Origin: Nanobdellota archaeon
Lineage (GTDB): Archaea; Nanobdellota; Nanobdellia; Pacearchaeales; GW2011-AR1
Length of the DNA stretch: 64,000 nt
Reading direction: 5' to 3'
Assembly (NCBI GenBank): GCA_038045705.1
Contig: JBBSXO010000006.1
Location: forward strand, 44,506 to 108,505
A program made the position numbers and the translations under genes. The notes below the pieces were generated by a model. That model worked only from the letters and a program-made list of their open reading frames with translations. It searched no databases and was not told where the DNA came from. This document shows positions 21,007 through 46,700 of this stretch, piece after piece; the stretch's first letter is position 1, and each line of letters starts with the position of its first letter.

Positions 21007-21078
21007 GCTCGTCTAGTATATCGGTTAGTACATGGCCCTGTCGCGGCCAAGAGCCGGGTTCGATTCCCGGGACGGGCG
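21007..21078 (+). tRNA. tRNA-Asp (anticodon GTC)
   Basis: Hand-folded. Acceptor GCTCGTC/GACGGGC with discriminator G. D stem GTAT/GTAC. Anticodon stem TGGCC/GGCCA with loop CTGTCGC. T arm CCGGG-TTCGATT-CCCGG. Length 72 nt. Confidence 0.8.
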
Positions 21079-21079
21079 T
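21067..21079 (+). repeat. attL core: 13-bp direct repeat CCGGGACGGGCGT (3' end of tRNA-Asp)
   Basis: Exact 13-mer repeated at 50735-50747. A GC-rich 13-mer in ~30% GC DNA is unlikely to recur by chance. Confidence 0.6.
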
Positions 21080-21161
21080 TACCCCATCTTGCGATTTTAA
21101 TGAGATGGAATATACAAGTTTTATACAAGCCGTTTAAAAAAATGGTTTGAGGTAAAACAAC

Positions 21162-22334
21162 GTGAAACTTGATCCGTATAAACATAAAGAAAGATACATA
21201 GCTTGGAAGAATAAAATAGGTTCGGTTATTCCAGATATTACTATTCAAAATTCCCAGATAATTTTACAATATCTAAACGATATGGAAAGGGGTTTAAATG
21301 TCTCCATATTAAGCCAAAAAGGTCCGAGAAGTTATATTCGCCTTAATTCTTTAAGAGAAAAAATTATAGGATATGCAAAAAAGTTTAATGAATTATATAA
21401 TTTAGAAACAATTACAGATATCTCTGAAGACCAGTTACTTAATTTCTTTGCAGATATGAGAGATGGAGTTATTAAAAGAAAAGATGGTAAGGAGTATCAA
21501 TCTGTGGATACTTCTGCGCGTATATTCAAAGCATTCTGGCATTGGCATCAAAAAGTAAGCAGAAAAAAAGGGATTGAGATAAAAGATATTACCTTAGATC
21601 TAGATACAAAAGCAAAGAAACCTGATTGGGTTTACCTTACTGAAAAAGAGGTCAGGGTATTATGCGATAATGCTAAACCAGACTACAAGGCACTTATAAT
21701 GTTTCTTTTTGATACTGGAATTAGATCTCCTACAGAACTAATGAATGTTAAATTATCTGATTTATTTAATGATTGTAAAGAAGTTAATATTCGCGAAGAA
21801 ACGAGTAAAACATTTGGGAGAAGAGTAAAATTAATGCTATGCTCCGATGCTATACGGGATTATATTGAAAGAAATGGGCTAAAAACCGATGATTATTTAT
21901 TTCCTATAACGCCTGCAAGAGTTAATGAATACTTGAAGAGACTTGCTAAAAGAATTTTTGGAGAAAAAATAACCCCTGCAGGTGCAAAATATTCTGAAAT
22001 TACAATGTATGATTTTAGGCACATAGCATGTTGCTATTGGTTACCACGATATAAGTCAGAATCAGCCCTCAAATATAGATTTGGATGGAGAGATAGTGAG
22101 AAAATCCATTATTATTCAGAATTATTGGGTATGAGTGATACTATCTCTGAAGAAGACATGCTTTTAGATGTTACAAAGACTGAGATTGAAAAGAGTCTAA
22201 AAAAATCAGATCAAGAAAAAGAAATACTAAGTGACAGAGTAAGATCGCTAGAAAAAGAAATATCTGAGATGAAGAAAATATCTTTAGAACTTATAAGAGT
22301 CTCAACACCTAAGAATCAATATTTACTATCTTGA
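21162..22334 (+). CDS. int: tyrosine recombinase / integrase (divergent)
   Basis: Box I DTGIRSPTELMNV (TGLRxxEL-like). Box II YDFRHIACCYWL (LRH). C-terminal ...KIHYYSELLG carries the candidate catalytic Tyr. Lies directly 3' of tRNA-Asp. About 65% identical to the paralog at 50910. Confidence 0.7.
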   Translation: MKLDPYKHKERYIAWKNKIGSVIPDITIQNSQIILQYLNDMERGLNVSILSQKGPRSYIRLNSLREKIIGYAKKFNELYNLETITDISEDQLLNFFADMRDGVIKRKDGKEYQSVDTSARIFKAFWHWHQKVSRKKGIEIKDITLDLDTKAKKPDWVYLTEKEVRVLCDNAKPDYKALIMFLFDTGIRSPTELMNVKLSDLFNDCKEVNIREETSKTFGRRVKLMLCSDAIRDYIERNGLKTDDYLFPITPARVNEYLKRLAKRIFGEKITPAGAKYSEITMYDFRHIACCYWLPRYKSESALKYRFGWRDSEKIHYYSELLGMSDTISEEDMLLDVTKTEIEKSLKKSDQEKEILSDRVRSLEKEISEMKKISLELIRVSTPKNQYLLS

Positions 22335-22536
22335 CTTTTTGTTTTGTATTAAGAATAGTATCAATTTTTTTATCCATTTCTAAAATAGTTAATTCTATTT
22401 TATTTAATTGAGGTATCTCTTTTATCTTCCTCCTACAAATTTCTGAGACAGATACTTTATTTTCTTCAGCAATTTTCTTCAATTTATCCAGCAAATCAGT
22501 TTCAAGGTATAAATGAAGTTGAGAATTCTTTTTCAT
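22309..22536 (-). CDS. ribbon-helix-helix (CopG/Arc-like) DNA-binding protein
   Basis: LHLYLETDLLDKLKKIAEENKVSVSEICRRKI fits the beta-strand plus two-helix RHH pattern. Length 75 aa. Confidence 0.4.
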   Translation of the reverse strand: MKKNSQLHLYLETDLLDKLKKIAEENKVSVSEICRRKIKEIPQLNKIELTILEMDKKIDTILNTKQKVKIVNIDS

Positions 22537-22604: not shown

Positions 22605-23180
22605 TCAGTGGTTAGTTCTTCCTCTAGAGTCATTATTAAATTTCTTGGTCTCATTGCCCCAGCAGTCCCAACCGCTAAAAGTTTCTCTTGCAAATAATTC
22701 TATTCTAGGTAAATCTCCAAGTAATTCTACAATATTATTTCTTATTTGATCTGGTTTTCTACTATGCTCTCTTAATGGAGAAAGAACAACTTGTCTAACT
22801 CTATTAGATTTTCTGATTAATTTTCCTTTTAATCCTAATAAACATATTTCTGTATTTGCTCGAGTCCAATTACCAAGACCCATAAATGGAAGCCCATCAC
22901 GTTTATTGGTTTTAACCCAAGTAAATGCTACTGTAACATATCTAAAACCCCATTTCTTCAAAGTTTCAATACATTCAGATAAAATTGGGTAAGTTGCCCA
23001 TAAGAAAAGAGCACAGTTTTCATCAGTGATCTGTTGAATTGGGAATTTCTGAATATCTTTAATTGGAACACAAGGATACTTTTTTGTCGCATTTGTTGTA
23101 CTGTATTTCCAGGGAGGATCTGCATAGATAATATTGTATTTTTTATTAATATCTAACTTCCATAAAAAATCTTTTTTCAT
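22605..23180 (-). CDS. orphan N6-adenine DNA methyltransferase, MT-A70 family
   Basis: YNIIYADPPWKY catalytic DPPW motif. Length 191 aa. No cognate endonuclease adjacent. Confidence 0.7.
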   Translation of the reverse strand: MKKDFLWKLDINKKYNIIYADPPWKYSTTNATKKYPCVPIKDIQKFPIQQITDENCALFLWATYPILSECIETLKKWGFRYVTVAFTWVKTNKRDGLPFMGLGNWTRANTEICLLGLKGKLIRKSNRVRQVVLSPLREHSRKPDQIRNNIVELLGDLPRIELFARETFSGWDCWGNETKKFNNDSRGRTNH

Positions 23181-23238
23181 GAAAAGAATCTGTAAAAAGT
23201 CATTATAAAAAATCGGGGACTAACTGGGCGTCTATCTG

Positions 23239-23275
23239 GTCGACTACTTAGATGTCCATTTAGTCGACTAAATGG
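23239..23275. promoter_or_regulatory. operator-like palindrome in divergent promoter region: 20-bp perfect palindrome CCATTTAGTCGACTAAATGG plus upstream GTCGACTA half-site
   Basis: The perfect inverted repeat 23256-23275 is centred on GTCGAC. The half-site GTCGACTA also occurs at 23239-23246. Located between the divergent MTase gene (start 23180) and ORF 23283. Confidence 0.4.
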
Positions 23276-23282
23276 TCTCCGA

Positions 23283-23498
23283 TTGCCTATAAACAATTTA
23301 GATCACAGCACAGACATGAAATTTTGCATTGTATGCGAAGCTGAAACTAAAGAAAGAGAGTTTTGCGAAAATTGTTTGACTTTCATAAAATGGAAGTACG
23401 AAAATAATTTTGAGGAACAGTTAGAAAGATTTCGTAAGCTGAAAGCCTACCTCGAAGATTGGCGTAACCAATCAACTGAAAAGGAGGTGGAAGAATGA
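23283..23498 (+). CDS. small zinc-ribbon protein
   Basis: CIVCEAETKEREFCENC (CxxC...CxxC) in a 71-aa ORF. First gene of a + strand operon with 4-nt overlaps. Confidence 0.3.
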   Translation: MPINNLDHSTDMKFCIVCEAETKEREFCENCLTFIKWKYENNFEEQLERFRKLKAYLEDWRNQSTEKEVEE

Positions 23499-23824
23499 AG
23501 GTACAAAAACTTGTTAGCCTTTTACTTGTTGCATATATTTTTGCTTTGCAGATTGTTAGTGCTCAGTTTAATGGGACAATAACTCAGGAAGAACAGGAGA
23601 CATTTGATACTATACTTGAACCAGTATTAAAAATATACAATTTAGTAAAGTATTCTGCGACTTTTATTGCAGTAATAATGCTTGTATTTGCTGGTATAAG
23701 CTACATAACTAGTGGATCAAATCCTACAAAACGTGAAAGTTCCAAGAATACTATAATGTATGTGTTTATTGGACTTGCAATAATTTGGGCAGCACCTTGG
23801 TTTGTGCAGTTTATAGTTAACTGA
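23495..23824 (+). CDS. candidate conjugative pilin (VirB2/TrbC-like topology)
   Basis: Signal peptide (MKVQKLVSLLLVAYIFALQIVSA), then two hydrophobic helices separated by a short polar loop (GSNPTKRESSKN). Mature size about 85 aa, as in VirB2/TrbC. Confidence 0.3.
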   Translation: MKVQKLVSLLLVAYIFALQIVSAQFNGTITQEEQETFDTILEPVLKIYNLVKYSATFIAVIMLVFAGISYITSGSNPTKRESSKNTIMYVFIGLAIIWAAPWFVQFIVN

Positions 23825-23826
23825 TT

Positions 23827-24228
23827 ATGAAAACTAAATTAACTAAAGCAGTAGGTACTCTTGCAATAGTATTTATGATTCTATTTTTGCTGTTGCAAGA
23901 GGCAACTGCCTGCCCATCGCGTTTGAGATGCTCTAATTTTACTAATATGGATAAAAGAAATGATTGCAACTATATTTGGTCTCAAACATCAGGTGCTGAA
24001 AGACAAGAGGCAGTATGTATTTTATGGGACCAAGAGTATGGATTTCCTGGATACAACCATTCCGTTTATCCTAATGCGGAATCCAATTTTACGTTTTCTC
24101 ATAAAGAAATAGAAACAAGTAGATTTATTTTGTTTTTCAAAATAATTATATTTCTGTTATTTAATTATATCTTGTTTTCCATTCTAACTAAGACTTCATT
24201 CGTTAGAAGATGCCTTCCTGCGGGTTAG
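23827..24228 (+). CDS. secreted Cys-containing protein with C-terminal membrane anchor
   Basis: N-terminal TM/signal, six Cys in the ectodomain, C-terminal hydrophobic helix. Confidence 0.3.
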   Translation: MKTKLTKAVGTLAIVFMILFLLLQEATACPSRLRCSNFTNMDKRNDCNYIWSQTSGAERQEAVCILWDQEYGFPGYNHSVYPNAESNFTFSHKEIETSRFILFFKIIIFLLFNYILFSILTKTSFVRRCLPAG

Positions 24229-25019
24229 TTAATCTTGGAGCTTGTCTCCCAGAGATGTTTTTTAATTTTATTTTTAATTTAATTAATGCTCCTGTTCAAC
24301 CCTTCTTACAAGTAGTTCTTAATTTGCTCTCTGCAGAAGCTCATTTTTCTATCTTCCTTAGTTTATGGGTAATCATTGTTTATATGTTATCAATGTTTTA
24401 CGCATTGCTTATCGTTGGAGTGGGTTTTAGTTTCCTTATCTCTGGCTATGACTTTGAGAAAAGAGAACAGACAAAGGAATGGTTGAGAAACATAATAATT
24501 ATGATAATCTTAATCCAATCCTCATTCTTTATCTACGGGTTAATTATGGATTTAGCTTCCACGATGACTTCTGCAGTTTTAAGTATTGTAAGCCCTAATT
24601 TCTTCAGTTTACAAGTTAGTAGCAGTCTTGGTTTGGGTTTAGCAATAACTTTACTCTTTGTTTATGTAATTACTTTAATTGTTACCATAATTGTCTTAAC
24701 TCTAAGATATGCAATAGTTGCAATAGGAGTAGTTTTATTGCCTATTGGAATTTTCTTCTACTTTCTTTCACCGCTAAGATCTTTTGGTTCATTAATCTTA
24801 AACATATTAGGAATGGCTATATTTATCACATTTTTTGATGCACTTTTACTCATAGGATTTTCTTCATTAATGAATGTTGAAATATTTGATCAGTTTCAAA
24901 TTGTAATTTTAATAACTGCATTTTTGCTAATTGACATCTTAATGGTTGTTCTGTTATTTTTCGCAATAACTAAAGCTGCATTTGGAATTTATGATAAATT
25001 TAGCAGGTGGAAGAAATAA
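24210..25019 (+). CDS. polytopic membrane protein (VirB6/TrbL-like candidate)
   Basis: 269 aa with about 6-7 TM helices. Lies in an operon with the pilin-like gene and the VirB4-like ATPase. Confidence 0.3.
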   Translation: MPSCGLVNLGACLPEMFFNFIFNLINAPVQPFLQVVLNLLSAEAHFSIFLSLWVIIVYMLSMFYALLIVGVGFSFLISGYDFEKREQTKEWLRNIIIMIILIQSSFFIYGLIMDLASTMTSAVLSIVSPNFFSLQVSSSLGLGLAITLLFVYVITLIVTIIVLTLRYAIVAIGVVLLPIGIFFYFLSPLRSFGSLILNILGMAIFITFFDALLLIGFSSLMNVEIFDQFQIVILITAFLLIDILMVVLLFFAITKAAFGIYDKFSRWKK

Positions 25020-25777
25020 TGGCTTATGAAATACCTCAACAACTAGAATACAAAGAGAAAATAATGTTTGGGTTAAATTTTAAGCAATTAGCTTATCTTT
25101 TTATTTTTGCACCAATTCTATTTGTTATTTTTTTTAAGACTGCCTGGCATAATGCAATAAAGATATTTTTTATGTCAATTTTTGGAGGTTTAGCTATAGG
25201 GTTTATCTTTCTTGATTTAGATAAACATCTTCAAAATTGGTTTTACTGGTATAAATCAAAGAAGTTAGAGTTAGATCATAAATTAGCCTTATTCATACCA
25301 ATAAAAGAAGTAAAAGATAGTTTGGTTATAACTAGGGATAATAGGAAACTAGCAATTATCAAGATTACTCCTATTAATTTCTCAATTAAACATGAAGAGT
25401 CTAAGAATGCAATATCAATAGCATTTCAGAAATTTCTCAATGGTTTAGATTTTCCTATACAGATTATAATGAATACTGAACACCTTGATCTACGAGATTA
25501 TTTTGCAGAAGTTGAAAGAAAGATAAAAGACTCCAAACAATTTAGATATTTGTTTGAAGGTTACAAGAGACATCTAGAGTCAATAACTAAAGAAAAAGAT
25601 GTGATGAATAGGGTTTTTTATCTAGTTCTTACAGAAAGAACTGATATTAATATACAATTACAGATTTGTCAGACAAAATTATCTAATATTGGTTTAAAGA
25701 GTTTGAGACTAAAAGATAATGAATTAAAAGAATTGCTTAGAAGATTTTTCTTAGCAAGGAGAAATCATGCTAAGTAA
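25007..25777 (+). CDS. membrane protein with two N-terminal TM helices (VirB3/VirB8-like candidate)
   Basis: Two N-terminal TMs, then a soluble domain. Immediately upstream of, and overlapping, the VirB4-like ATPase gene. Confidence 0.3.
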   Translation: MEEIMAYEIPQQLEYKEKIMFGLNFKQLAYLFIFAPILFVIFFKTAWHNAIKIFFMSIFGGLAIGFIFLDLDKHLQNWFYWYKSKKLELDHKLALFIPIKEVKDSLVITRDNRKLAIIKITPINFSIKHEESKNAISIAFQKFLNGLDFPIQIIMNTEHLDLRDYFAEVERKIKDSKQFRYLFEGYKRHLESITKEKDVMNRVFYLVLTERTDINIQLQICQTKLSNIGLKSLRLKDNELKELLRRFFLARRNHAK

Positions 25778-28076
25778 AAAAGAAAGACCTAAAGAAAATA
25801 CGGAATTTTTACCTTTAAAGATAGAAAACACCCCCAGTTATCTTAAAATAACAGACGGAATAAAAGAACCAATCTTTAGTAGAACAATTTATGCTCATGG
25901 ATATCCTAGAAGTGTAGAAACTGGATTTTTGGACAAAATAATTAGCACAATGGGTAACTTTGATCTTTCTATGCACATTGAACCTTTTGATATAGAAACA
26001 ATGATGATCTTTCTAAACAAAGAACTTCAAAAACAAGGCTCTGACCTCTATACAGCTAAGGCAAAAAACATTCTTAGCCCGAGTCTTGAGATAAAGTACA
26101 AAGACACAAAAGCAGTCTTAGAAAATCTCCAAAAAGGTAAGGATAAATTGTTTAACGTAAGTCTTTACATAAATTGTAGAGCTAAATCTAAAGAAGATCT
26201 GGATCTTTTAACTAAATTAATACAAGCCGAACTTAACTCGCTACTGATAATCCCTAAAGTACCAAATTTTAGGATGGCTCAGGGTTTCCAGTCATCTTCT
26301 CCTTTAGCCATGAATAAACTTAAGCAAATAAGAAGTGTGCCTACTGAAGCATTATCTGCATTCTTTCCGTTTACTTCTTCATTTCTTCAAGCAGATAAAA
26401 CAGGAGTATGGTTAGGGCAAAATAAGAATAATATTCCCATAATAAAGGATATTTTCAATCTAAGTAACCCAAATGGTTTGTGTTTAGCTAGTTCGGGATC
26501 TGGTAAAAGCTATATGGCTAAACTCCTTATTTCACGTTATTTGCTTAATGGAACTAATGTAATGATAATTGACCCGCAAGGTGAGTACAAAGCTCTTGTA
26601 AAGCGATTTAATGGCCAATTAATCGATTTAAGCACGCACTCTGAGACAATAATTAATCCTTTAGATTTGATGGGTCATGACTATCCCGAAAAGCGTTTAG
26701 CTTTAATCGATTTGATGCATCTAATGCTTGGAGATCTTAGCGATCCACAAAAAGCTATTCTAGAAAAGGCAATAACAACATCTTATGAAGAAAGAGGAAT
26801 TTATATGAATAAAGTAGTTTCTTGGAGCAGAAAGCCTCCAATCATTGAAGATGTTCTAAATGTATTGAAGAAAGATGAAAAGAAAGCTACTCAAATAGAA
26901 AAGACTACAATAAGAAGCCTCATAAATCGTCTAGATGGTTATGTAAATGGAGTATTTTCTTTTCTTAATCAGGAAACTAAGATTAACTTTGATAATCAAT
27001 TTGTATGTTTTGATATAGGAAATCTGCCAAAACAAATCAAACCCCTAATGATGTTTATGGTTTTAGATTATATTTACATGAAAATGAAGAAAGACTTGAA
27101 TAGAAAACTCTTGGTTATCGATGAAGCTTGGGCACTTCTAAGGCAAACTCATGAAGCATCTTATGTATTTGAGATAGTAAAAACATGTCGTAAGTTCAAT
27201 CTAGCTTTATTTTTGATTAATCAAGAAGTTGAAGGTATGCTTGATTCAGAAGCGGGTAAATCTGTGTTAGCAAATAGTTCTTACACTCTCTTAATGCGTC
27301 AAAAGCCAGCCGTAATAAGAAATATTCAGAAAACATTTTTTCTAAGTGACTCAGAAGTCAACCATTTACTTACGGCTGGCGTGGGAGAAGGAATTTTGGT
27401 AATGGAGGATGATCATTCTGAAATAAAAATCATAGCTTCTCCTGAAGAACATAATATTATAACTACGAAGCCGGATGAGTTATTAACCAATCAAAAGAAA
27501 GTAAGTGAAAAAGAGCGTCTTCAGCTATTACAAGAACAATATGATTTACGGAAAGAAAAAAGAGACGAAAGACAAAAAATAGAAATAAAGATAGACAAAG
27601 ATGTAGGATGTGTTAAACTAAAAGACATATTAAAAGATGAAGTAAACTACCTCAAAAATTTAGGGTATAAGATTTACAGAAGTAAGAGCATCCTAAGCAA
27701 TAAAACAGAAAGTTATTTGATAGAACAAAAGAAAACAGAAAGCCCGCAACATATTTTTATGGTAAAAGATATTTCAGACTATTTGAAAAAGTTTACAGAT
27801 AAGGTTAGAATATATGAAACTGTGCAACCAGATATAGTTTTCGAGATAAATGAAAAGAAATATGCTATTGAAGTGGAAACAGGTAGTTTATTAAAATCAA
27901 ATAAAAAAGCATTGAAAGATAAAATAGAATTACTAAATAAAAAATATAAAGATAGATGGTTTTTTGTCGTAACTAATAGAAATATTGCATCAAAATATTC
28001 AGAATTAGGTAAAACTTATGATAAAAGATATATTAATACATTATTAAAACGCTTAATTGTAGAAAATAGCCAGTGA
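25767..28076 (+). CDS. VirB4/TrbE-like conjugative transfer ATPase with C-terminal PD-(D/E)xK nuclease-like extension
   Basis: Walker A LASSGSGKSY. Walker B LLVIDEAWALL about 205 aa later. VirB4-type LFLINQ...SYTLLMRQ motif. A C-terminal ~200 aa carries PDIVFEINEKKYAIEVETGS (D...ExE/K pattern). Confidence 0.55.
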   Translation: MLSKKERPKENTEFLPLKIENTPSYLKITDGIKEPIFSRTIYAHGYPRSVETGFLDKIISTMGNFDLSMHIEPFDIETMMIFLNKELQKQGSDLYTAKAKNILSPSLEIKYKDTKAVLENLQKGKDKLFNVSLYINCRAKSKEDLDLLTKLIQAELNSLLIIPKVPNFRMAQGFQSSSPLAMNKLKQIRSVPTEALSAFFPFTSSFLQADKTGVWLGQNKNNIPIIKDIFNLSNPNGLCLASSGSGKSYMAKLLISRYLLNGTNVMIIDPQGEYKALVKRFNGQLIDLSTHSETIINPLDLMGHDYPEKRLALIDLMHLMLGDLSDPQKAILEKAITTSYEERGIYMNKVVSWSRKPPIIEDVLNVLKKDEKKATQIEKTTIRSLINRLDGYVNGVFSFLNQETKINFDNQFVCFDIGNLPKQIKPLMMFMVLDYIYMKMKKDLNRKLLVIDEAWALLRQTHEASYVFEIVKTCRKFNLALFLINQEVEGMLDSEAGKSVLANSSYTLLMRQKPAVIRNIQKTFFLSDSEVNHLLTAGVGEGILVMEDDHSEIKIIASPEEHNIITTKPDELLTNQKKVSEKERLQLLQEQYDLRKEKRDERQKIEIKIDKDVGCVKLKDILKDEVNYLKNLGYKIYRSKSILSNKTESYLIEQKKTESPQHIFMVKDISDYLKKFTDKVRIYETVQPDIVFEINEKKYAIEVETGSLLKSNKKALKDKIELLNKKYKDRWFFVVTNRNIASKYSELGKTYDKRYINTLLKRLIVENSQ

Positions 28077-28191
28077 CTGCATTGAGTCACCTAGATTTTC
28101 ATGAAAAAGGAGCATTTTTTAGCATTTTGTCGACTATTATATTTTATTGCTCTCTAAAAAAGTCACTAAAAGAATTAGCCCTTTCTTTAGT

Positions 28192-29760
28192 TTAAATTAC
28201 AGTAAATTCAAAAGCATCAGAAATAGAAACTACATTACCATTAGAGTCTAAAGTAACAAATGATGTATAAAAGGTAGAATTGCTTAGAGAAGGAATATTA
28301 GGTATTGCTAAGGTAACTTTAGATTGATTGATTCTCAATCTTCCAATAGAATTATATAAACCAATACTTTGGGGATTAGTTAAAGATGTTTGTAATAAAG
28401 GGGTGTTGTCTAAAGGAGTTATTCTTCCATCAGGCAGTGTAACTCCTTGGGAAATATTTGTAGACATTCCTAAAACATAATTTGCTTTAAGGTCGTAAGA
28501 TTCCTGTAATAAGAAGTTAACGCTTGATCCAACTCTTGGACTTCCAAGCATAACAATATTAGAAGGATTAAGAGATCTCTGGTATTTTACTCTTGCAGTT
28601 CTATATTGACCTTCATGCCATACTATATGTATATTTCCTTGTCTATCTGAAGCAAATTTTGGCGAATAAATTTGTCCTGCTCCCATAATAGTTGGACCAA
28701 TAATAATATTTCCAAGAGAATCTAATTGGCTAAATACTCTGCCTTGTCCAAATATACCTATACGCCCAAGAGAGTTAACTACGATTCCATCATTTCCAAC
28801 ATTTGGTAAAACTAATTTCTTATTTATTAAAAATGTACCATTGCTGTTTATTTTAGATAAATAGATACCAGAAGCATTATTATAATCAGAATTCCAAGAA
28901 AAGATAACATTATTTTGTTTATCGATTGCAATTGCTGGATAATCAGAGCCACCCATACCAATATCTAATTGAGAACCATTTATTAGTACATTTCCGAACT
29001 GATCTATGTAAGAATACTTAACATGAGCAACCCTGCTAGTAGAATTAGCAACAAACTCTTCCATCCACATCAAATAAGAAAAACCATTATTATCTGTAGC
29101 TAGCTTAATAACTAAAGGTTCGAAAATGCCTGCATTATAGACAGAATATATTGGAACTAAAAGATTACCTTGATTGTCGAACTTTCCATAGTAAACATCA
29201 TGATCTCCGCGCCAAGCGACATTTATGTTTCCGAGATTATCAACAGATAACTGCGGGTCTCCAGTTCCACTTCCAGGCAATAAAACTCCATTTACTGCAA
29301 TAGTACCATTAGCATAAAGCCGTGTATATCTAGTACCATGAAGAGTACTTCCAATCAAATCATACATCCATACAATATGAATATTATCAAATTTATCCAC
29401 AGCAATTGAAGAGAAGAATCCATAAGTGCTATTAAAATTGGTTAATTGTTGGTTACTAATAATTGTATTTCCAAATTTATCTAATTTGGTATAAAATACT
29501 TCTCCGATGATATTTGACAATTTTTGCATCCAAATAATATGCACGTTCCCTTGAGAATCTGTAGCTATAGATGGGTCTGCTGCAGTTAAAGTCAAATTAA
29601 GTAGAGAAATTAGAGATTCATTACTCCAATGTATTTGGGGTTCAATAGCTGAAGCTGGGGAAAGCAGAGGATAAGATGTAAAAAATCCTATTGCAACTAA
29701 AATAAAAATTAATGCTACCAGATTCTTATTTTTCTTCATAAAACTCCAGAAATTAATCAT
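28192..29760 (-). CDS. secreted beta-propeller-like repeat protein
   Basis: Signal/anchor, then at least six roughly 45-50-aa repeats with core D-x-x-G-N-[IV]-H-[IV]-x-W (DSQGNVHIIW, DKFDNIHIVW, DNLGNINVAW, DKQNNVIFSW, DRQGNIHIVW). Confidence 0.4.
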   Translation of the reverse strand: MINFWSFMKKNKNLVALIFILVAIGFFTSYPLLSPASAIEPQIHWSNESLISLLNLTLTAADPSIATDSQGNVHIIWMQKLSNIIGEVFYTKLDKFGNTIISNQQLTNFNSTYGFFSSIAVDKFDNIHIVWMYDLIGSTLHGTRYTRLYANGTIAVNGVLLPGSGTGDPQLSVDNLGNINVAWRGDHDVYYGKFDNQGNLLVPIYSVYNAGIFEPLVIKLATDNNGFSYLMWMEEFVANSTSRVAHVKYSYIDQFGNVLINGSQLDIGMGGSDYPAIAIDKQNNVIFSWNSDYNNASGIYLSKINSNGTFLINKKLVLPNVGNDGIVVNSLGRIGIFGQGRVFSQLDSLGNIIIGPTIMGAGQIYSPKFASDRQGNIHIVWHEGQYRTARVKYQRSLNPSNIVMLGSPRVGSSVNFLLQESYDLKANYVLGMSTNISQGVTLPDGRITPLDNTPLLQTSLTNPQSIGLYNSIGRLRINQSKVTLAIPNIPSLSNSTFYTSFVTLDSNGNVVSISDAFEFTVI

Positions 29761-29778
29761 ATTTAAAGCCTATTATCT

Positions 29779-30150
29779 TCAAGGTATTGTATAAAATCCT
29801 CTACCGTCTACATCTAAATCGCCAAAGGGATCAGGGTGGAAAGCTATTGTTCTTGTTTCCATTTCTGTGTTAATATCATCTCTTATTGCTACATCTAAGT
29901 CTGTAATTCGATTGACCGTTCCTCTAAATTGTCTTTCACACTTTCCCGCTTCTAAAATTGCTATGTAATTAGTATACCCATCTTCTGAATATATTTTATA
30001 AGCATAATCAACATCAATTATTCCATTAGCTTGGCATCTTGGGTTTATAGTTATATTAGCGCTTGGTTGTGCTTGAACTGCAATTATTGTCACTCCTATA
30101 AATAATATCATTCCTAAAAAATATAGTATTTGATTTTTCATAATGGACAA
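29779..30150 (-). CDS. small secreted protein
   Basis: Signal peptide MSIMKNQILYFLGMILFIGVTIIAVQA. Length 123 aa. Confidence 0.3.
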   Translation of the reverse strand: MSIMKNQILYFLGMILFIGVTIIAVQAQPSANITINPRCQANGIIDVDYAYKIYSEDGYTNYIAILEAGKCERQFRGTVNRITDLDVAIRDDINTEMETRTIAFHPDPFGDLDVDGRGFYTIP

Positions 30151-31826
30151 ACTCCTGCCGTGTTATCTATCCAAGACAGACCCCCGTTGTTGCAATAGAC
30201 TAACGCTTGATTAGTAGTAGGAGTTTTATTTAAAGGTACCCATGCAGTTGAGTTCCAATAAATTACACTTCGATTCACTCTAGTCCATTGGCTTTCAACA
30301 GTTAGAGATTTATTTAAGCAATTTCCACCAGTTACACAAATATCTTTTGTATTGTTTAGTGGATTCCTCAATGCAATTTTATAACTATCTAAGTATGTAG
30401 AAGCTACATTATCTTGAGCATTTAATTCTAATGTTTGTTGCGCAACATTATTTGTGAATACCCAATTACCTGTAAAAGAAGCATTACCTAAAGATAGTTG
30501 AGAATTTGCAGTATCAGTAGGTAATATGTATAATCCGTTTGCTATTCCTCCTACATTAAGAGTTCCATTTCCACCAGTCATTTTTATCAGCGGAATTCCA
30601 AATATTGATACAAGCGTTGTTGTTACATCAAATGTAGTTGCAGAAAGTGCTACACCAGCTTGTGAATCATCTAATCTTAATTTTTTTCCAAATATTCTAT
30701 CTAAAACTGTTAAATCTTGTGTAGAGAAGTTTAATCCAACGTAAGAAGAAGCATTTACAACTCCGTTAACTATAACTGATCCATTAACATGAAATTTTTC
30801 CTGAGGGTTAACAGTTCCAATGCCAACTTTTCCATCGCTTTTCCATGACATTATTCCGTTTAATTGACTTCCACTACGATTGTTGGATACATCTAGTTTC
30901 AAAAGACCAACCCCAGGATGATTAACAAATGCATAAGTCAATGGATTAAGCTCATTTATAGCTCCAGACAATAGTAAAGTTGCAGCACCATCTGCTATCT
31001 GTGAACCAGTAAATCCAGTATGGCCTCCCATTATATTAAGAGTTCCCCTTCCATTAGTGCCGTTTCCAGCAATTAATATCTGAGAACGAATATCAGTTCC
31101 CTCGTTAGTTGTAACCTTTATGCCCCCAGTAGCATTTCCATTCCATATAGTTAATATATGATCTGGAGTTGTAAGACCAATTCCTATTTTTGAACCACTT
31201 TGAAAAATAGCAGAACTATTCAAACCAGTAGTAGAATTCCATCTAGAAATATATCCAGAAATCCCTTGACCAGTTAAAGTTCCCGTAGAAGGAAGATTTG
31301 TTAATTGTGATCCGTCACCAATAAAGTATGGAGAGGTAACTCTTTCGGAAAAGTATCCTGATTTAGCGCTAACATTGTTAGTAATATTTATGTTCTTTCT
31401 ATTCTCTGAGAAAAGAAGGTTGTCGCTTTCATTAATTGCCCAAATAATATTACCTTTTATTACTCTTATAACTAAATCTCCCGTCTGAGCAATGGAAGAG
31501 TAATGCCCTGCAGCTAAAGCAAGCCCTAAGTTAGCAAGAATGCTCGTCTCGTTCTTAAAACCAAGAGCAGGAGAATTTGATTGTGCTTGCGCACCAGCTA
31601 TTGTAAGACCCTCACCAGGTCTTTGAACATTTATGCTATGATAATTTGAAGTCATATTTTCAGCTGTGAAGTTTCCGTTGCGGAAAATAATATTTCCAGC
31701 AGAAACAGATGTAATGAAGAAAGACAGAATAAGAAGAGAAATAATAGATTTTAATCCATTCCCCTTCATATACGGAAGTGTCTTCTCATATTTATATATG
31801 TTGTGTTTAAAATATGACATTTTCAT
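30138..31826 (-). CDS. secreted G/N/T-rich fibre-like protein
   Basis: N-terminal TM anchor. Low-complexity Gly/Asn/Thr/Ser-rich beta-rich sequence of 562 aa. Confidence 0.35.
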   Translation of the reverse strand: MKMSYFKHNIYKYEKTLPYMKGNGLKSIISLLILSFFITSVSAGNIIFRNGNFTAENMTSNYHSINVQRPGEGLTIAGAQAQSNSPALGFKNETSILANLGLALAAGHYSSIAQTGDLVIRVIKGNIIWAINESDNLLFSENRKNINITNNVSAKSGYFSERVTSPYFIGDGSQLTNLPSTGTLTGQGISGYISRWNSTTGLNSSAIFQSGSKIGIGLTTPDHILTIWNGNATGGIKVTTNEGTDIRSQILIAGNGTNGRGTLNIMGGHTGFTGSQIADGAATLLLSGAINELNPLTYAFVNHPGVGLLKLDVSNNRSGSQLNGIMSWKSDGKVGIGTVNPQEKFHVNGSVIVNGVVNASSYVGLNFSTQDLTVLDRIFGKKLRLDDSQAGVALSATTFDVTTTLVSIFGIPLIKMTGGNGTLNVGGIANGLYILPTDTANSQLSLGNASFTGNWVFTNNVAQQTLELNAQDNVASTYLDSYKIALRNPLNNTKDICVTGGNCLNKSLTVESQWTRVNRSVIYWNSTAWVPLNKTPTTNQALVYCNNGGLSWIDNTAGVCPL

Positions 31827-34800
31827 ATAATCCTCCAGTTAAGCAAAGATTTCCGTTAAAGTCAATGTAACTCATATTGTATCCAGTTAAATTCTGTATG
31901 AGAAAAGAATCTCTTATAGGATTACATGAACTTATCATATCTGAACAGGTTCCAGATTCTAAGCACATATTACCAGTAGTGTCAATGTAAGCTGTAGAGC
32001 TATCTGTAGAATTTCCGATAACCAAAGAACCGTTAGGTGCAACGCAGTTGCTTGATATCGAACAAGTACCTTTAAGAGCAATATTGCCCCAGTCTCCTAA
32101 CCATGCAACATTTGATGCAGTTGAGTCTTGTATTAGAAATTTATTAGTGTCATTTCTCATTGGATTAAGAGTTACAGAATTAGAGGGAGAGTAATAAGCC
32201 GAGTAAGTATTGCTTCCATTAACATCTATCGATCTGCATGAGAAAATAACTGGGTATTCTGGAGCGATGGAATTAAAGTTCCAATTTAACGTTTGACTAG
32301 CCGTATGATTTCCTATACTATGGAATGCTAAATCATAAAATGCATTTATATTATAAGTGATATTATCATTTTCAGCATCGGTAGACCCAGAACAGTTGAG
32401 ATTCATGCTATAATAAAAAGTATTTGTTGAACATGCAGCACCATTACAAAGAAGAGAAGTTGGAGTAGTTGGAGGAGTATTGTAAGTGCAGTTAAGACTA
32501 CAACTTCCAGTACCAGCAACAACACCATTACACTGACTGTCTGCTGTACATCCAGTAGCAAAACTTGAAGATCTACAAACATTGTCTCCCCTATCTTCTC
32601 CACTAGCACTAGAAGAACATTTATCTGCAAAATAAGTTAGAGCACTAGCACAGGTTGTTATATTACTGCCTGAAGAAAGTCCATCACATAATGGTTGTGC
32701 ACAAGAACATCCAGTTTCTCCACATTCAAAGACTGAAGTTACATCCTGATAACCACATACACTACTACATTCTTCTTCATAATAAGAAATTCCAGAACAC
32801 AAATTCAAATCATCTCCTGTTTGTCGTTCATCACAACTAGATATTCCTAAAGTAGTAGAAAATTCGCAATAATTTGTTTCCTGACTGTCAAAATAGCCAT
32901 TATACGGACTAAAACACCAACCATCATCACTTAAACCAACACCATCATTATCACAAAAGTTTGATTGACATTGAGCACTAGAAGTGCAAGATTGCCCATT
33001 GGATAAATCAGAAACACAACTCCAAGTATTCCAGCTACCAGATTTATTACAAAATTGATTTGAAGCACAGTCACTATTACTATAGCAATTCAAAACATAA
33101 ATGTAAGGGTTATTTGTATATGAAGGGTTAAATGGATCAAAACCAGTGGTACACCAATAAGATGAAGTGTCATCGTAACCTATAATCTCTTCAAAGTGTG
33201 CTGTTGCAGGAGCATTAGTTACATTTATCACGCCCTGATTGCCCGATAGTGGATTTCCACCACAGCCACCAGAACCACAACTACTTGGATTAATATCATA
33301 ATAAACATCTTGAGCATCAACTGCTTTCCAACCAACTTTATAATTTCCTATAGTATAGGGGTCACTATTATCAACTACTTGTCCCCAAGAAATGTTATTT
33401 ACATTACTATACACATTTATAGCAACAGTTACATCACAATTTCCAAAACTATTAGTTGTACAATATTCATAACCTGGCTCCGTACATGTAGAATTTCCAC
33501 CACCAGCGCCACTACAAGAAGCATCATTAACACATCTTGTCTGCGCATTACAACCTGAAGGAGTACAAGTTCTTGTTTCTAATCTTTGACCCTCTCCACA
33601 TCCCCCTCCACCACAAGAACCAGAAACCCAGTTACTACATTGACAACTTGAACTAAGAACACTAACCCATATAGGATTTGTATAAGTTCTATAAGTTCCC
33701 CCAGATCCAATGCATTCAGCCCTAAAATATGTATCTCCAGGATTTGCAAGAGCTAGATTGGGCAAAGTAATGGGGCTTGAACTGCCACTGATATTAACGG
33801 GTCCATAATGAGTCAATTCAAGATTACTCCCAATTGTTGATTTGTAAACTCTAAGAGTACATGAATGATCTAAATCATAAGTTATCCTCATATTCAAAAT
33901 ATCATTGGTATTTGCACTAACTTCTCCACCCATTTGAGTCCATGTTGATTGAGAATTCTTTTTTGCTTCTATTATAACATATCCATTATTAGACACAACA
34001 TTCGTTCCAGCAGCTAAAGCAGATTGAATATTAGAATGGGTGATGGTGGAAGCTGGAACATAGTTATAATTTATGTCAGAAACATGTCCATGTTCATCGG
34101 TGCCCCCATATGCATAAACGCGCTCATCTTGTTGCAAGAGATTATACCATGCATTAAAATTATCAGCATCATCATCAAGGCTATCAGAAGTGAAATTTCC
34201 ATTCCAAATTTCAACCCCATCATATCCCGAAACAGAATATATTGATTCAAAATCAAGAAAAGTAGTGGTGCTGGATGAAGGATGAGGGTGATTAAGAATG
34301 GAGATACCACCTTGGCTAGCAATAGAATTAACTCCGCTTTGAGCAGATGGGCCCGAAGGGCAATGAACTGCAGAAGGTGTTTGAGATATCAAACTGCTTA
34401 GCCCATATCCTCCAATATGAGCCTCTCCTGGACCAGTTGAACCAGTATAACAACTAAAAAGATTTTCATTATCCCCAGAAATATCCTGAGTGCTTAATTC
34501 TTCTCCCATAAGACAAGTAAATGTACTATTTCGGGCATTCACACAATCATTTCTTACTGTACCAAACTCACCAGCATCAATACAATAACTGTGATCTGAA
34601 AATCCAAGATAATCTAGTCCTAAATTTGCAGCTTCATCTGCTAATTCTTGAACTTCATAACCTATCAAATGTCCTTCAAGACCTATGGGGAGGCAGTTAT
34701 CTGAATTTGTAAATGGATTGCTATCATATCCACCCACTGTGCTAAATCCAGTATGTTGATGTAGACTCCCTTTATAAAAATTAATTGCCAAACCATCCTC

Positions 34801-34857
34801 AGAAAACAAGATCACTGTAAGAATAATAAAAATAAAGACGACATAATTTATCTTCAT
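31807..34857 (-). CDS. secreted PHP-domain phosphoesterase fused to a ~700-aa Cys-rich extracellular region
   Basis: Signal peptide. PHP motifs SLHQHTGFS, LGFSDHS, GEELS and ILNHPHP in the first ~200 aa. Over 60 Cys in CxxC/CxC arrays thereafter. Length 1016 aa. Confidence 0.45.
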   Translation of the reverse strand: MKINYVVFIFIILTVILFSEDGLAINFYKGSLHQHTGFSTVGGYDSNPFTNSDNCLPIGLEGHLIGYEVQELADEAANLGLDYLGFSDHSYCIDAGEFGTVRNDCVNARNSTFTCLMGEELSTQDISGDNENLFSCYTGSTGPGEAHIGGYGLSSLISQTPSAVHCPSGPSAQSGVNSIASQGGISILNHPHPSSSTTTFLDFESIYSVSGYDGVEIWNGNFTSDSLDDDADNFNAWYNLLQQDERVYAYGGTDEHGHVSDINYNYVPASTITHSNIQSALAAGTNVVSNNGYVIIEAKKNSQSTWTQMGGEVSANTNDILNMRITYDLDHSCTLRVYKSTIGSNLELTHYGPVNISGSSSPITLPNLALANPGDTYFRAECIGSGGTYRTYTNPIWVSVLSSSCQCSNWVSGSCGGGGCGEGQRLETRTCTPSGCNAQTRCVNDASCSGAGGGNSTCTEPGYEYCTTNSFGNCDVTVAINVYSNVNNISWGQVVDNSDPYTIGNYKVGWKAVDAQDVYYDINPSSCGSGGCGGNPLSGNQGVINVTNAPATAHFEEIIGYDDTSSYWCTTGFDPFNPSYTNNPYIYVLNCYSNSDCASNQFCNKSGSWNTWSCVSDLSNGQSCTSSAQCQSNFCDNDGVGLSDDGWCFSPYNGYFDSQETNYCEFSTTLGISSCDERQTGDDLNLCSGISYYEEECSSVCGYQDVTSVFECGETGCSCAQPLCDGLSSGSNITTCASALTYFADKCSSSASGEDRGDNVCRSSSFATGCTADSQCNGVVAGTGSCSLNCTYNTPPTTPTSLLCNGAACSTNTFYYSMNLNCSGSTDAENDNITYNINAFYDLAFHSIGNHTASQTLNWNFNSIAPEYPVIFSCRSIDVNGSNTYSAYYSPSNSVTLNPMRNDTNKFLIQDSTASNVAWLGDWGNIALKGTCSISSNCVAPNGSLVIGNSTDSSTAYIDTTGNMCLESGTCSDMISSCNPIRDSFLIQNLTGYNMSYIDFNGNLCLTGGLYENVIF

Positions 34858-35303
34858 TTCCTATCCTCATAAATCTTCCAAATTAAGGCTAGCGCCGAAA
34901 AAATTAATAAAGAAATCCCTACAAAATAAGCCATCCTGAGATTAGAACTTGCTTCAAGCAAAAATCTCGAAAAATTGGAATTCAAAGCAACTCCTATGGG
35001 CCAAAATGAAGTAGCAATTACACTGATTAAAATAAGTTCTTTACTTTCATCTTTAGCTCTTTTTAATAAAATTAAGAGTATCCATGGAAGAATCAACCAA
35101 AATATCAAATTTACTATTAATACTTCTGGAATAATAATTAAAGATTCACCACCTCTAGTTCCAAAAACTGTTTGAGAAATTAGAGTTGCAATTAATCCTG
35201 GAATGAATGTCACTAAAATCACTAAATCGCTCTTTGAAAATAAAAATCCTGCTAAAATAAAAATAAATGCACAGCACAAAACCAGATAAATTTTATTCTT
35301 CAT
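34854..35303 (-). CDS. membrane protein, hypothetical
   Basis: 149 aa, four TM helices, co-transcribed with the surface proteins. Confidence 0.3.
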   Translation of the reverse strand: MKNKIYLVLCCAFIFILAGFLFSKSDLVILVTFIPGLIATLISQTVFGTRGGESLIIIPEVLIVNLIFWLILPWILLILLKRAKDESKELILISVIATSFWPIGVALNSNFSRFLLEASSNLRMAYFVGISLLIFSALALIWKIYEDRK

Positions 35304-35306
35304 TTA

Positions 35307-36977
35307 TCAAATAACCTCCATTATGTGTTCTGTAGAGATTTGACGTTCCTCTCCCAAGTAGTTGTAATCTAAAGTTATATTTATCCACTCATCATTTCCA
35401 ACAGTGAAATCCCCATAGAATATTTCCTCATATCTTATCCTTATTTTTTCCACATAAACGTTTAGGGTAGGTTCAGTAAGATTAAACTCAAATCCTTGTT
35501 CGATAGATAAATCTTTATTGAAGTAGAGACTTCCGTTTGAAATGTAGATGCTTAAATTTCCTAGCTCAATAACATCATTAAGGTAAATGCTATGGCTAAC
35601 AACAATAGTTCTATTATGATCAACATGATTAACAGTGTAACTGGATATATCATGCTCTAAGGACACATTAATACCAACTGCAATTGTTCTATTTTCACTC
35701 CAAGTTCCTTGAGAACTATTGTCGTAAGCCAAGAAAGAGTATGTATAGTTTCCTTCCGAGATGTTAGCTAAAACAAATGTCGTAAAATTAGTTGCTCCAG
35801 TTAAAATTACAGTTTCTTCTAATTGCCAACTACCTCCAGTATTAGAATATAAAGAGATATTGGTCAAAACATAATCATCTGTAACATTCGGAGTCAAAAA
35901 TAAATAACCATCCCCATCTAAATAGTTATCTTCTGGAGAGAGAGTAATATATCTTGGAGCAGTGTCTCCTTGTTCTGTAACCGTTAATAGGATCTCACTA
36001 TCACCTACACCATTATCAGAGTCATATACATAGAATGTAATATATTCTGAACCGTACCAGTTAGTTTCCGAAGTTAAGGTTACTATTCCAGAGGTTTCAT
36101 CTACTTCTGCAGATATGTGGTCTGAAGAACTAGCATTATAAGTTAGCTCATCGCTGTCAGAATCTGAAGAGTACTCACTAAGATTAACTACTTTCAATGA
36201 ATCTTCGCCCCAAGTTTGTGAAGACAGTTCAGAAAATACAGGAAGAGGATTTTGAACTGCTATAGTTCTATTTACCGTAGACCATGCAGAGTTAGGAGAA
36301 GAAGCAAAATCATAGCAGATAATATTCCATTTAAATGTAAGATCATTAGGGACATTATTTAACTCAAAAGTCTGTGAAATATTTTTAATAACAAAATAAT
36401 TAGTCTGATTCGCAGCCCAAGTTCCACTCATATTGGTATAAAGACTACAATTTACTATCCACCCATCGTCATCAACACTATAATTTAATTGTAATGTTCT
36501 ATCAGTTGAATTAAATCCATTGGACGGACCTTCAATGTTCACCACAGGGGGAGTGGTGTCATTGAACACGTCAAAAACTCTTGCTTCAGACTGGCTAATA
36601 TTTCCATCCGACCAAGAACAATTAACACTCCAACTATATTCATCATTTTGAAGATTATTTAGATAAAAATAATTTGTTGAGGAACTACTAATATTAATTT
36701 CAGTTTGATTTATTATACCATCAAAAATAAAGCTACAATTATCCATAGTATAAGAAGAATTAGTAATTATATAAGAAAATGCTACATTTCCATCAAATTC
36801 TACAGATCCATTTTCAGGAGTTTGAAGTTCAACAATATAACCATAACCACCACTAGTACCTTGAGCACTAACAAAAAAGAAAAACAAAAAGACTAATACT
36901 AATAAAATAGAAAAAGTGGAAAAAATCATAAAATATTGATTAATTATATTGAACCTTTTAAGATTTCCTTTCACCAT
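35307..36977 (-). CDS. secreted N/S/T-rich surface protein (probable Ig/fibronectin-like repeats)
   Basis: N-terminal TM/signal FSTFSILLVLVFLFFFFVSAQG. 556 aa with many NxS/T sequons. Confidence 0.35.
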   Translation of the reverse strand: MVKGNLKRFNIINQYFMIFSTFSILLVLVFLFFFFVSAQGTSGGYGYIVELQTPENGSVEFDGNVAFSYIITNSSYTMDNCSFIFDGIINQTEINISSSSTNYFYLNNLQNDEYSWSVNCSWSDGNISQSEARVFDVFNDTTPPVVNIEGPSNGFNSTDRTLQLNYSVDDDGWIVNCSLYTNMSGTWAANQTNYFVIKNISQTFELNNVPNDLTFKWNIICYDFASSPNSAWSTVNRTIAVQNPLPVFSELSSQTWGEDSLKVVNLSEYSSDSDSDELTYNASSSDHISAEVDETSGIVTLTSETNWYGSEYITFYVYDSDNGVGDSEILLTVTEQGDTAPRYITLSPEDNYLDGDGYLFLTPNVTDDYVLTNISLYSNTGGSWQLEETVILTGATNFTTFVLANISEGNYTYSFLAYDNSSQGTWSENRTIAVGINVSLEHDISSYTVNHVDHNRTIVVSHSIYLNDVIELGNLSIYISNGSLYFNKDLSIEQGFEFNLTEPTLNVYVEKIRIRYEEIFYGDFTVGNDEWINITLDYNYLGEERQISTEHIMEVI

Positions 36978-37472: not shown

Positions 37473-37561
37473 AACCGCTTTATATATTTACCTAGAAATT
37501 TTTCTCTTTAGAATTAGAGCATTCTATGAATATATAAAAGATGCCGAATTATTCTAATTAG

Positions 37562-38485: not shown

Positions 38486-38535
38486 TGATTTTGTTTTTTA
38501 GCAAGGTTTATAACTCAAAATAAGCGACCCTTATT

Positions 38536-41824: not shown

Positions 41825-41849
41825 AGTTCGAGAAATATAAGTTCTTTAT

Positions 41850-41905
41850 TTAAATTTATGGTTATGTACACATATTTATACAATGTGTGTTTATACACAC
41901 AATAA
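41850..41905. promoter_or_regulatory. divergent promoter region with three TTTATACA repeats and TGTACACA palindrome
   Basis: atgtacacatatttatacaatgtgtgtttatacacacaataagtatata lies between the divergently transcribed regulator (40895-41824) and radical SAM gene (41936). Candidate BRE/TATA plus operator sites. Confidence 0.3.
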
Positions 41906-41935
41906 GTATATAATAAAACCTCAGATATATGAGTT

Positions 41936-46644: not shown

Positions 46645-46700
46645 TTGACTATCAATTTAATATCTAAAATTTTAAAATCTCCTAATGATTTCGGAGAATT

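Follow-up and report, generated by a model that had tools for sequence, protein, structure and literature searches.

What is the six-gene operon at positions 23283–28076 of a 64,000-nucleotide (nt) stretch of Nanobdellota archaeon DNA (contig JBBSXO010000006.1; hereafter the window, to which coordinates refer unless a related locus is named), and can it move the DNA that carries it? A sequence-only reading had proposed a conjugation-like type IV secretion system (T4SS) in an archaeal integrated element. We found that a tRNA-Asp gene of a Woesearchaeota-like DPANN archaeon carries, at its 3' end, an integrative element of 29.7 kb (window positions 21067–50747), the first of two tandem elements. 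Its operon encodes a VirB2-type pilin, VirB3, a VirB6-like protein and a VirB4 ATPase ending in a predicted nuclease-fold domain. We take the element to be integrative and probably conjugative; conjugative self-transfer is the best supported reading, and one that we consider fairly likely. Comparisons are with at least 124 related loci (designated by L numbers), full-length VirB4 relatives (52–80% identity) being found in 43 genome loci and 80 metagenome loci.

An integrative element at tRNA-Asp

The integration target, the borders and the integrase of the element are these.

21007–21078, + strand: tRNA-Asp(GTC), the integration target (ARAGORN, Rfam)
21067–21079, + strand: core of the left attachment site, attL, CCGGGACGGGCGT, formed by the last 12 nt of the tRNA and one further base (exact 13-nt direct repeat)
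21162–22334, + strand: tyrosine integrase gene int1 (Pfam Phage_integrase 2e-9, above threshold; NCBIfam XerA_Arch 5e-13)
50735–50747, + strand: attR of element 1 and attL of element 2, an exact repeat of 21067–21079, with a second integrase gene (int2) next, as in L038, L094 and L110

The suspected integrated element thus has a Phage_integrase gene beside tRNA-Asp, 83 nt from its 3' end, and is bounded by att repeats. Because the 13-nt repeat (0.02 chance matches expected) recurs at 50735 and int2 follows directly, we place element 1 at 21067–50747 with a second element in tandem. Only this 13-nt core recurs; no repeat was found with the 22-nt tRNA 3' end as query. Homologs of int1 (58–63% identical) adjoin tRNA-Asp in related loci, and tRNA-Asp lies directly upstream of the integrase in L014, L016, L017, L018, L021 and L022 as well; L101 and L107 duplicate contigs already counted here, having been fetched again from the metagenome collection. 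In L051, L076 and L087 tRNA-Asp adjoins the T4SS module with no integrase between.

In six related loci, no exact repeat of 11 nt or more of the tRNA end was found within the 10-kb flanks. The att search across the family used a degenerate 12-nt motif, [CT]CGG...GGGCG, which gave 34 matches in 1.59 Mb (124 loci) against an estimated expectation of about 0.5. All copies are at tRNA-Asp, just before an integrase, after c4 (a conserved gene near the right end, described below) or beside the ribbon-helix-helix (RHH) gene. L008 is a complete 16-kb element, att to att, with the T4SS inside; its att pair is equivalent to that of the window, as is the pair in L038. The window, L038, L094 and L110 each have a tandem c4-att-int junction. 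The elements that accrete at tRNA-Asp range widely in size. In L045 (4529–6352) an att-integrase-att unit of about 1.8 kb, holding the integrase alone, sits beside a T4SS module in inverted orientation.

The host flank is 99.9–100% identical in four independent assemblies (L125–L128, from the Hainich aquifer and one SRA run), all of which break at 21057–21201, within tRNA-Asp or the first 40 nt of int1, that is, at the left edge of the element. These breaks suggest strain-level heterogeneity at the site. To the Hainich contigs Hain_H41_* the identity of the flank is 100%.

A type IV secretion operon

All six open reading frames (ORFs) that the earlier reading had assigned to one operon are present where it placed them, co-directional on the + strand between 23283 and 28076.

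23283–23498, + strand: small zinc-ribbon protein (o1), CxxC-x9-CxxC; cysteine motif kept in clusters 6 and 14, weak Pfam DZR match
23495–23824, + strand: VirB2/TrbC-type pilin (o2); Pfam T4SS_pilin and TrbC, topology
23827–24228, + strand: secreted Cys-rich protein with a C-terminal transmembrane (TM) anchor (o3); topology, same slot and architecture in relatives
24210–25019, + strand: VirB6-like polytopic membrane protein (o4); fold comparison
25007–25777, + strand: VirB3 (PrgI) TM hairpin and first part of the VirB4 N-terminal domain (o5); Pfam PrgI, NCBIfam VirB4_plasma
25767–27500, + strand: VirB4 ATPase, remaining N-terminal domain and P-loop motor (o6); NCBIfam, Pfam, PDB, motifs
27534–28076, + strand: predicted C-terminal PD-(D/E)xK (restriction-endonuclease-fold) domain of VirB4; fold, invariant residues

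Of the 4-nt overlaps described for the operon, only that at o1/o2 (ATGA) is present; after it come a 2-nt gap and then overlaps of 19, 13 and 11 nt. The o4/o5 overlap shrinks to 1 nt if o5 starts at ATG 25019, which is probably its start rather than the GTG at 25007 of the ORF list; this ATG forms a TAATG overlap with the o4 stop and has a Shine-Dalgarno (SD) sequence 8 nt upstream. Likewise, the true start of o1 is probably ATG 23316, not the listed TTG 23283; it would be leaderless, about 25 nt past a TATA-like box. SD-like GGAG/GGTG motifs precede the o2, o5 and o6 starts. GC content of the window is about 31%.

Hydropathy agrees with the topologies first proposed: signal peptide plus two TM segments for o2, signal peptide plus C-terminal TM segment for o3, about 6–7 TM segments for o4, two for o5 and none for o6. 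Family searches sharpen several of these calls. The pilin candidate o2 scores above the gathering cut-off with both models for its class, Pfam T4SS_pilin (5.4e-13, 49.3 bits, cut-off 26.6) and Pfam TrbC/VirB2 (2.3e-8, 34.6 bits, cut-off 27.9). The protein of about seven TM segments, o4, had been put forward as a VirB6/TrbL candidate; it has the polytopic channel topology and, by comparison, the VirB6 fold, and its identity rests on this comparison, with no match in Pfam or in a profile search against PDB sequences. Its N-terminus resembles a pilin. The zinc ribbon of o1 was correctly recognized from its CxxC-x9-CxxC motif, which is conserved in relatives. The slot of o3 is variable, holding proteins of 131–151 or about 440–466 amino acids (aa) with unchanged architecture; o3 had no family match in Pfam, NCBIfam and PHROGs scans, and is a candidate adhesin or exclusion factor.

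Gene order was counted in the 66 loci having at least 3.5 kb upstream of VirB4. The zinc-ribbon gene is found in 50 of these, VirB2 in 62, and o4 and o5 in 63 each. The order VirB2, o4, o5, VirB4 is kept in 60 of the 66, and the arrangement is therefore not due to chance. A DPANN-type host had been guessed, and the 43 genome loci are nearly all metagenome-assembled genomes (MAGs) of Woese-, Pace- or Nanoarchaeota. Loci L006, L007, L011, L027, L030, L034 and L035 (VirB4 55–62% identical) come from MAGs labeled Bacteroides, Bdellovibrionales, Babeliales, 'bacterium' or Methanosarcinales; these labels most likely reflect small DPANN contigs that were mis-binned.

VirB4 and its conserved fission

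The two-TM protein of the earlier reading, o5, does have two TM segments, yet it is actually VirB3 plus part of the VirB4 N-terminus: residues 9–81 match Pfam PrgI (4e-6, 27.6 bits, cut-off 27), the protein matches positions 3–276 of NCBIfam VirB4_plasma, the VirB4 model of Mycoplasma integrative and conjugative elements (ICEs), at 8e-14, and its homologs bear a precomputed PF26593 TraC-like match. The remainder of VirB4 is o6. Its best profiles are NCBIfam conju_CD1110 (4e-87, 293 bits, model positions 209–728 of 752) and VirB4_plasma (3e-75, 253 bits, positions 299–893 of 894), followed by NCBIfam TraC (2e-44, 152 bits) and Pfam P-loop_TraG (1e-24). Against PDB sequences it matches only 4AG5, the C-terminal domain of a VirB4 (1.4e-33). 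The motifs on which the ATPase had been called VirB4-like are all present: Walker A is GSGKS at aa 244, Walker B is DEAW, 208 aa further on at aa 452, and LFLINQ and TLLMRQ lie at aa 481 and aa 507. The nearest relatives in the plasmid collection (26–31% identity) come from Firmicutes and Actinobacteria and bear the annotation VirB4-like ATPase; 4082 among the best 5000 matching plasmids are conjugative, and the nearest annotated plasmid relatives are monoderm CD1110-family VirB4 proteins.

A profile search of 25767–28076 had been proposed as the means of telling VirB4 from a viral packaging or HerA/FtsK-type ATPase, which would make the element a prophage. The ATPase does match a PHROG labeled terminase large subunit (8e-28, 98 bits) and Pfam DUF87, the HerA central domain (3e-15, 57 bits), and 53 unannotated 'Bacteriophage sp.' records match it. 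Scores from the VirB4 models are nevertheless three to five times higher, and these models also take in the VirB4 N-terminal domain. VirB4 is the best match in PDB as well, and VirB2, VirB3 and a VirB6-fold protein are adjacent. No capsid, portal or terminase gene was found in the element. Among 20 element proteins there was no capsid, portal or tail match; PHROGs scans of them yielded only VirB4 (to phrog_2666) and a single further family, whose function is unknown. No relatives were found in IMG/VR. We reject the provirus explanation as scarcely credible.

Most relatives encode VirB3-VirB4 as one ORF of 976–1040 aa, whereas the window's clade (the window, L001, L002, L003, L025, L028, L044 and L129–L131) has two. 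It could be objected that the split marks a pseudogenized, immobile remnant, of which the lack of any observed excised form would be a further sign. The two halves are colinear with residues 2–241 and 249–1023 of a fused 1028-aa homolog, so that the break falls at the same linker (fused residues ~242–248) with both halves intact; an SD-ATG restart follows it; the split is retained across a clade diverged to 69–75% nt identity; and all motifs and neighboring genes are intact. Because of the common linker, the clade-wide retention, the colinear halves and the restart, we conclude that the split is a conserved fission rather than a sequencing error, and we reject decay of the element as very improbable.

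A predicted nuclease-fold domain on the motor

The last ~180 residues of VirB4 form a putative PD-(D/E)xK domain that is conserved family-wide, with invariant acidic, His and Lys residues in the pattern ESxxH, PD, ExE, K. This domain had no Pfam or PHROGs match, its profile gave only spurious mL59 matches against PDB sequences, and tblastn found no match among 72,556 plasmids. The fusion has representatives down to about 30% identity, including Ca. Burarchaeum; one Diapherotrites relative lacks the domain, and some homologs of it stand alone behind a TM anchor and coiled coil.

Judging by its predicted fold, the domain is a candidate relaxase substitute. We tentatively raise the possibility that the fusion is a cut-and-pump motor with which DPANN elements conjugate, or pull DNA from neighbor or host cells, without a relaxase or coupling protein. 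If so, this would be a mechanistically distinct, minimal form of T4SS DNA transfer, and it might explain relaxase-less archaeal conjugation. The processing site of such a motor might then be, as a similarly speculative suggestion, the hairpin-forming repeat between the divergent promoters described next.

The divergent promoter region

The T4SS operon diverges from a leftward operon, and the region between them holds a nested inverted repeat.

22309–22536, − strand: RHH (CopG-like) DNA-binding protein; weak Pfam RHH_1, RHH_7 and DUF6364
22605–23180, − strand: orphan DNA methyltransferase (MT-A70); Pfam MT-A70 2e-32, PADLOC MTase_II 1e-62
23205–23295: divergent TATA-like boxes and nested inverted repeat AATCGGGGAC...GTCTCCGATT; conservation, single-stranded DNA folds
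28129–28136, + strand: fourth copy of GTCGACTA, just past the VirB4 stop; motif count

The RHH gene keeps its position in 43 of the 66 loci, and other elements have an N6_N4 methyltransferase in the methyltransferase slot (cluster c2, N6_N4_Mtase 1e-36). Between these leftward genes and the T4SS operon, the inverted-repeat region is better conserved than the genes that flank it. Its pattern is a TATA-like box, AATCGG(A/G)GA(C), a variable self-complementary center, (G)TCTCCGATT and a second TATA-like box; the repeat itself (23212–23284) comprises two GTCGAC-centered palindromes. Counterparts occur in close relatives (L001 7421–7493, L002 7420–7492, L003 7435–7507) and in distant loci too (L015 6435–6483, L017 7317–7365, L022 7338–7395). 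Arm spacing is 40–64 nt, and the inner arms vary among loci with complementarity retained. Single-stranded DNA folds have z-scores of −4.2 to −9.2, and none of 200 shuffles folded equally well. The repeat could be an operator and/or an origin of transfer (oriT)-like hairpin, to judge from its sequence.

Four copies of the 8-mer GTCGACTA occur in the 64 kb, against 0.44 expected (23239, 23261 on the − strand, 23263 and 28129), only at the ends of the T4SS operon; L001–L003 lack an exact counterpart of the downstream copy. About 100–130 nt past VirB4, L001 (~12390–12425), L002 and L003 (~12405–12430) and L028 (~3175–3215) have GTCACTAAAAGAA and then a long CT-rich tract (CTCTCTTCTCTC...). The window has no such tract, and its surface-protein block begins there; this site may be a recombination or cargo-insertion point.

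Cargo, c4 and the second element

The genes to the right of the T4SS operon are as follows.

28192–38982: cargo, large secreted/surface proteins of 522, 562, 1016 and 556 aa and others; weak repeat/Ig-like matches
38966–45290: cluster of NUDIX, 267-aa, His-phosphatase, 309-aa, radical SAM, DUF2064, AAA_28, CYTH and His-phosphatase genes; Pfam
45314–45628, + strand: c4, conserved protein of 90–115 aa near the right end; conservation, position
45676–50600, + strand: right-end cargo, DUF4238, HEPN-like and other proteins; library scans
50910–64000: tandem element 2, with int2, HEPN, type I restriction-modification (R-M) and a deoxyribosyltransferase/B12 radical SAM/winged-helix (wHTH) cluster; runs off the window

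The backbone of the element is the integrase, the leftward methyltransferase-RHH operon, the rightward T4SS operon and c4 near the right end, with cargo slots between. Directly past VirB4 comes the 10.8-kb surface block, whose 522-, 562- and 556-aa proteins have weak beta-propeller or Ig-like matches and whose 1016-aa member is Cys-rich; part of it is shared with L003, L028, L010 and L026, and it is absent from the close relative L001. The NUDIX-to-CYTH cluster always lies between VirB4 and c4 in the window's clade (L001 12634–17535, 92% nt identity; L044 5060–9979). With its NUDIX, radical SAM and DUF2064 (nucleotidyltransferase-like) genes it looks like a nucleotide-modifying pathway; in other elements this position is taken by a cluster of deoxyribosyltransferase, B12 radical SAM and HAD genes.

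The c4 gene is present in 28 of 124 loci, always downstream of VirB4 and in the same orientation. It is often the last gene before att, an att copy lying within 0.1–2.2 kb downstream in six loci; no such copy was found downstream of c4 in L044. In the circular form c4 would sit just upstream of attP-int. The protein has no family match, and is possibly a recombination directionality/excision factor.

Element 2 encodes an integrase 62% identical to that of element 1 and the type I R-M genes hsdM, hsdS and hsdR; its segment 61515–64000 has homologs in clusters c12, c15 and c20, found ahead of c4 in L009 and L017. No T4SS is found in the portion within the window, and element 2 could be a mobilizable partner of element 1. 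Sister elements carry a Piwi protein (prokaryotic Argonaute, pAgo) with TIR, an OLD-like ATPase with a UvrD-like helicase (Gabija-like), and a reverse transcriptase (L044 13209–16110; L017 3069–6342; L129 14068–15207). Two slots, one between integrase and methyltransferase and one after c4, serve as defense-gene hotspots.

Conjugation, host interaction or import

How far do these parts make a conjugative element? The earlier proposal of an ICE-like element holds for the T4SS parts, the att borders and the signatures of mobility, namely att repeats, tandem junctions, variable flanks, mosaic divergence and defense cargo (type I R-M, pAgo with TIR, OLD with UvrD, reverse transcriptase). Neither VirD4 nor a relaxase was found, and transfer itself is inferred. 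Several observations weigh against self-transfer. Library scans of the element's ORFs and of the conserved neighboring clusters found no VirD4-type coupling protein, relaxase or replication protein, although a coupling protein may be encoded elsewhere in the genome; no circular or excised copy (a contig with a terminal overlap) was found among the 124 loci, nor any empty tRNA-Asp site; the module can face either way relative to att, and in some cases has no integrase nearby; and the relaxase-less, VirB2-containing T4SSs of Patescibacteria are thought not to conjugate (PMC12102498). VirB8 and VirB1 were not found in the element or the conserved gene set either.

The Patescibacteria systems suggest a different role, in which the T4SS serves interaction with the host cell (contact, uptake of DNA, nucleotides or other material, effector delivery) and the island is merely its carrier. 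A host-interaction role has been proposed for these essential, relaxase-less, VirB2-bearing systems, and the parts agree: T4SS_pilin PF18895, PrgI-type VirB3, MPF-FATA-like VirB4 and no relaxase (PMC12102498, PMC12857230; MPF, mating-pair formation). For nanohaloarchaea, too, a VirB4-linked role of this kind has been put forward (PMC10266531). In the window, L003, L028, L010 and L026 the module is followed by genes for large secreted proteins, and a channel-tethered nuclease would suit DNA scavenging. Against this, the module shows systematic ties to a tyrosine integrase, to att sites, to tandem accretion and to defense cargo, and can occur twice on one contig (L017 and L019). It also diverges faster than the adjoining genes, with 75% nt identity to L001 against 92% for the adjacent NUDIX-to-c4 cluster, and its contexts vary around identical proteins, contigs with an identical o4 protein having different flanks. 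These ties, the fast divergence and the variable contexts argue for a selfish element rather than a core symbiosis locus, and we regard the symbiosis apparatus as rather unlikely.

The absence of VirD4 and relaxase beside VirB2, VirB6 and VirB4 also matches the Ced and Ted systems (PMC9905601), and the ATPase has a weak NCBIfam CedD match (4.6e-12). The pilus, VirB6 and VirB4 might accordingly bring DNA into the encoding cell, with the nuclease degrading one strand or processing the incoming DNA. VirB4 is, however, far nearer the CD1110-family and Mycoplasma-ICE models (293/253 bits) than CedD (45 bits); Ced and Ted are chromosomal, domesticated and linked to repair genes, whereas the module here is on an att-bounded mobile element; and import would bring no obvious benefit to the element's own spread. 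We think DNA import of this kind quite improbable.

Conjugative self-transfer, our preferred reading, might proceed as follows. The integrase, perhaps with c4, would excise a circle, and the RHH and/or zinc-ribbon protein would control the divergent promoters via the conserved inverted repeat. VirB4, anchored by VirB3, would extract signal-peptide-processed VirB2 from the membrane, and a pilus would be built on a VirB6 platform, with the variable secreted protein o3 mediating contact or exclusion. The nuclease-fold domain, tethered to the VirB4 hexamer, would process element DNA at the channel and so replace relaxase and coupling protein. In the recipient, the orphan methyltransferase would protect the entering DNA and the integrase would insert it at tRNA-Asp; the neighboring T4SS-less element could be co-mobilized.

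Archaeal conjugation is poorly understood: Sulfolobus plasmids, pT33-3 and thaumarchaeal ICEs have VirB4 and VirD4, with no recognizable relaxase or pilin. The present family, abundant with its 124 or more loci, is compact and has clear borders, and it unites VirB2, VirB3, VirB6 and VirB4 with a motor-tethered nuclease-fold domain. This combination gives the missing DNA-processing step a concrete candidate that can be tested. The family also parallels the essential Patescibacteria T4SS, and it shows how defense systems (type I R-M, pAgo with TIR, Gabija-like, reverse transcriptases) may pass, along with surface proteins, between ultrasmall symbiotic archaea.

Comparison with known systems

The monoderm MPF-FATA systems (CD1110/Tn916/ICEBs1-type, Mycoplasma ICE) have the same best VirB4 profiles, with VirB4_plasma spanning the VirB3-like N-terminus, and have in common with the present family a PrgI-type VirB3, a VirB6-like channel and an integrase-bearing carrier. 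Classical monoderm systems are without VirB2 (PMC12857230). Here VirB2 is present, the host is archaeal and VirB4 has its nuclease-fold domain, while VirD4/TcpA, relaxase, VirB8/PrgL and cell-wall hydrolase were not found. VirB4, VirB3 and VirB6 are of common ancestry with their monoderm MPF-FATA counterparts, and the system would work in a similar way.

Streptococcal ICEs undergo tandem accretion with mobilizable elements at one att site. Likewise, two integrase-bearing elements stand here head-to-tail at one tRNA att, one of them with a transfer machine; the host in this case is archaeal, and co-mobilization is a possibility only.

The Patescibacteria (Candidate Phyla Radiation, CPR) T4SSs share the MPF-FATA-like VirB4, PrgI, VirB6, VirB2-like pilins of PF18895/PF04956 and the lack of a relaxase (PMC12102498), and their hosts, as here, are ultrasmall and probably symbiotic. 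CPR systems are, in contrast, chromosomal and not described as integrase-bounded. No VirB3-VirB4 fusions were found among them (PMC12102498), whereas fusion is the rule in the present family; VirD4 and VirB8 are reported for CPR loci, and a nuclease fusion is not.

Ced and Ted are chromosomal, domesticated DNA importers (PMC9905601). The minimal core of VirB2-like pilin, VirB6-like and VirB4-like proteins is common to them and the present family, and the VirB6 N-terminus is pilin-like in both. The family differs in its recognizable VirB3, more bacterial-like VirB4, nuclease fusion and tRNA-integrating element.

Archaeal conjugative plasmids and ICEs (pNOB8/pING, pT33-3, thaumarchaeal ICEs; PMC6563490, PMC12857230) resemble the element in their archaeal hosts, tRNA integration and lack of a recognizable relaxase, and have VirB4, VirB6 and VirB3 homologs. 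Thaumarchaeal ICEs have a median att of 17 bp and a median size of 64 kb (PMC6563490, PMC12857230). These plasmids and ICEs combine VirB4 with VirD4 and have no recognized VirB2; the present element has no VirD4, a clear VirB2 and a nuclease-fold fusion, and is much smaller than the thaumarchaeal ICEs.

The earlier reading called such systems poorly described in DPANN archaea, and our literature search on DPANN ICEs and T4SSs agrees: we found no paper describing such a DPANN family, and no DPANN system is listed in a T4SS review of December 2025.

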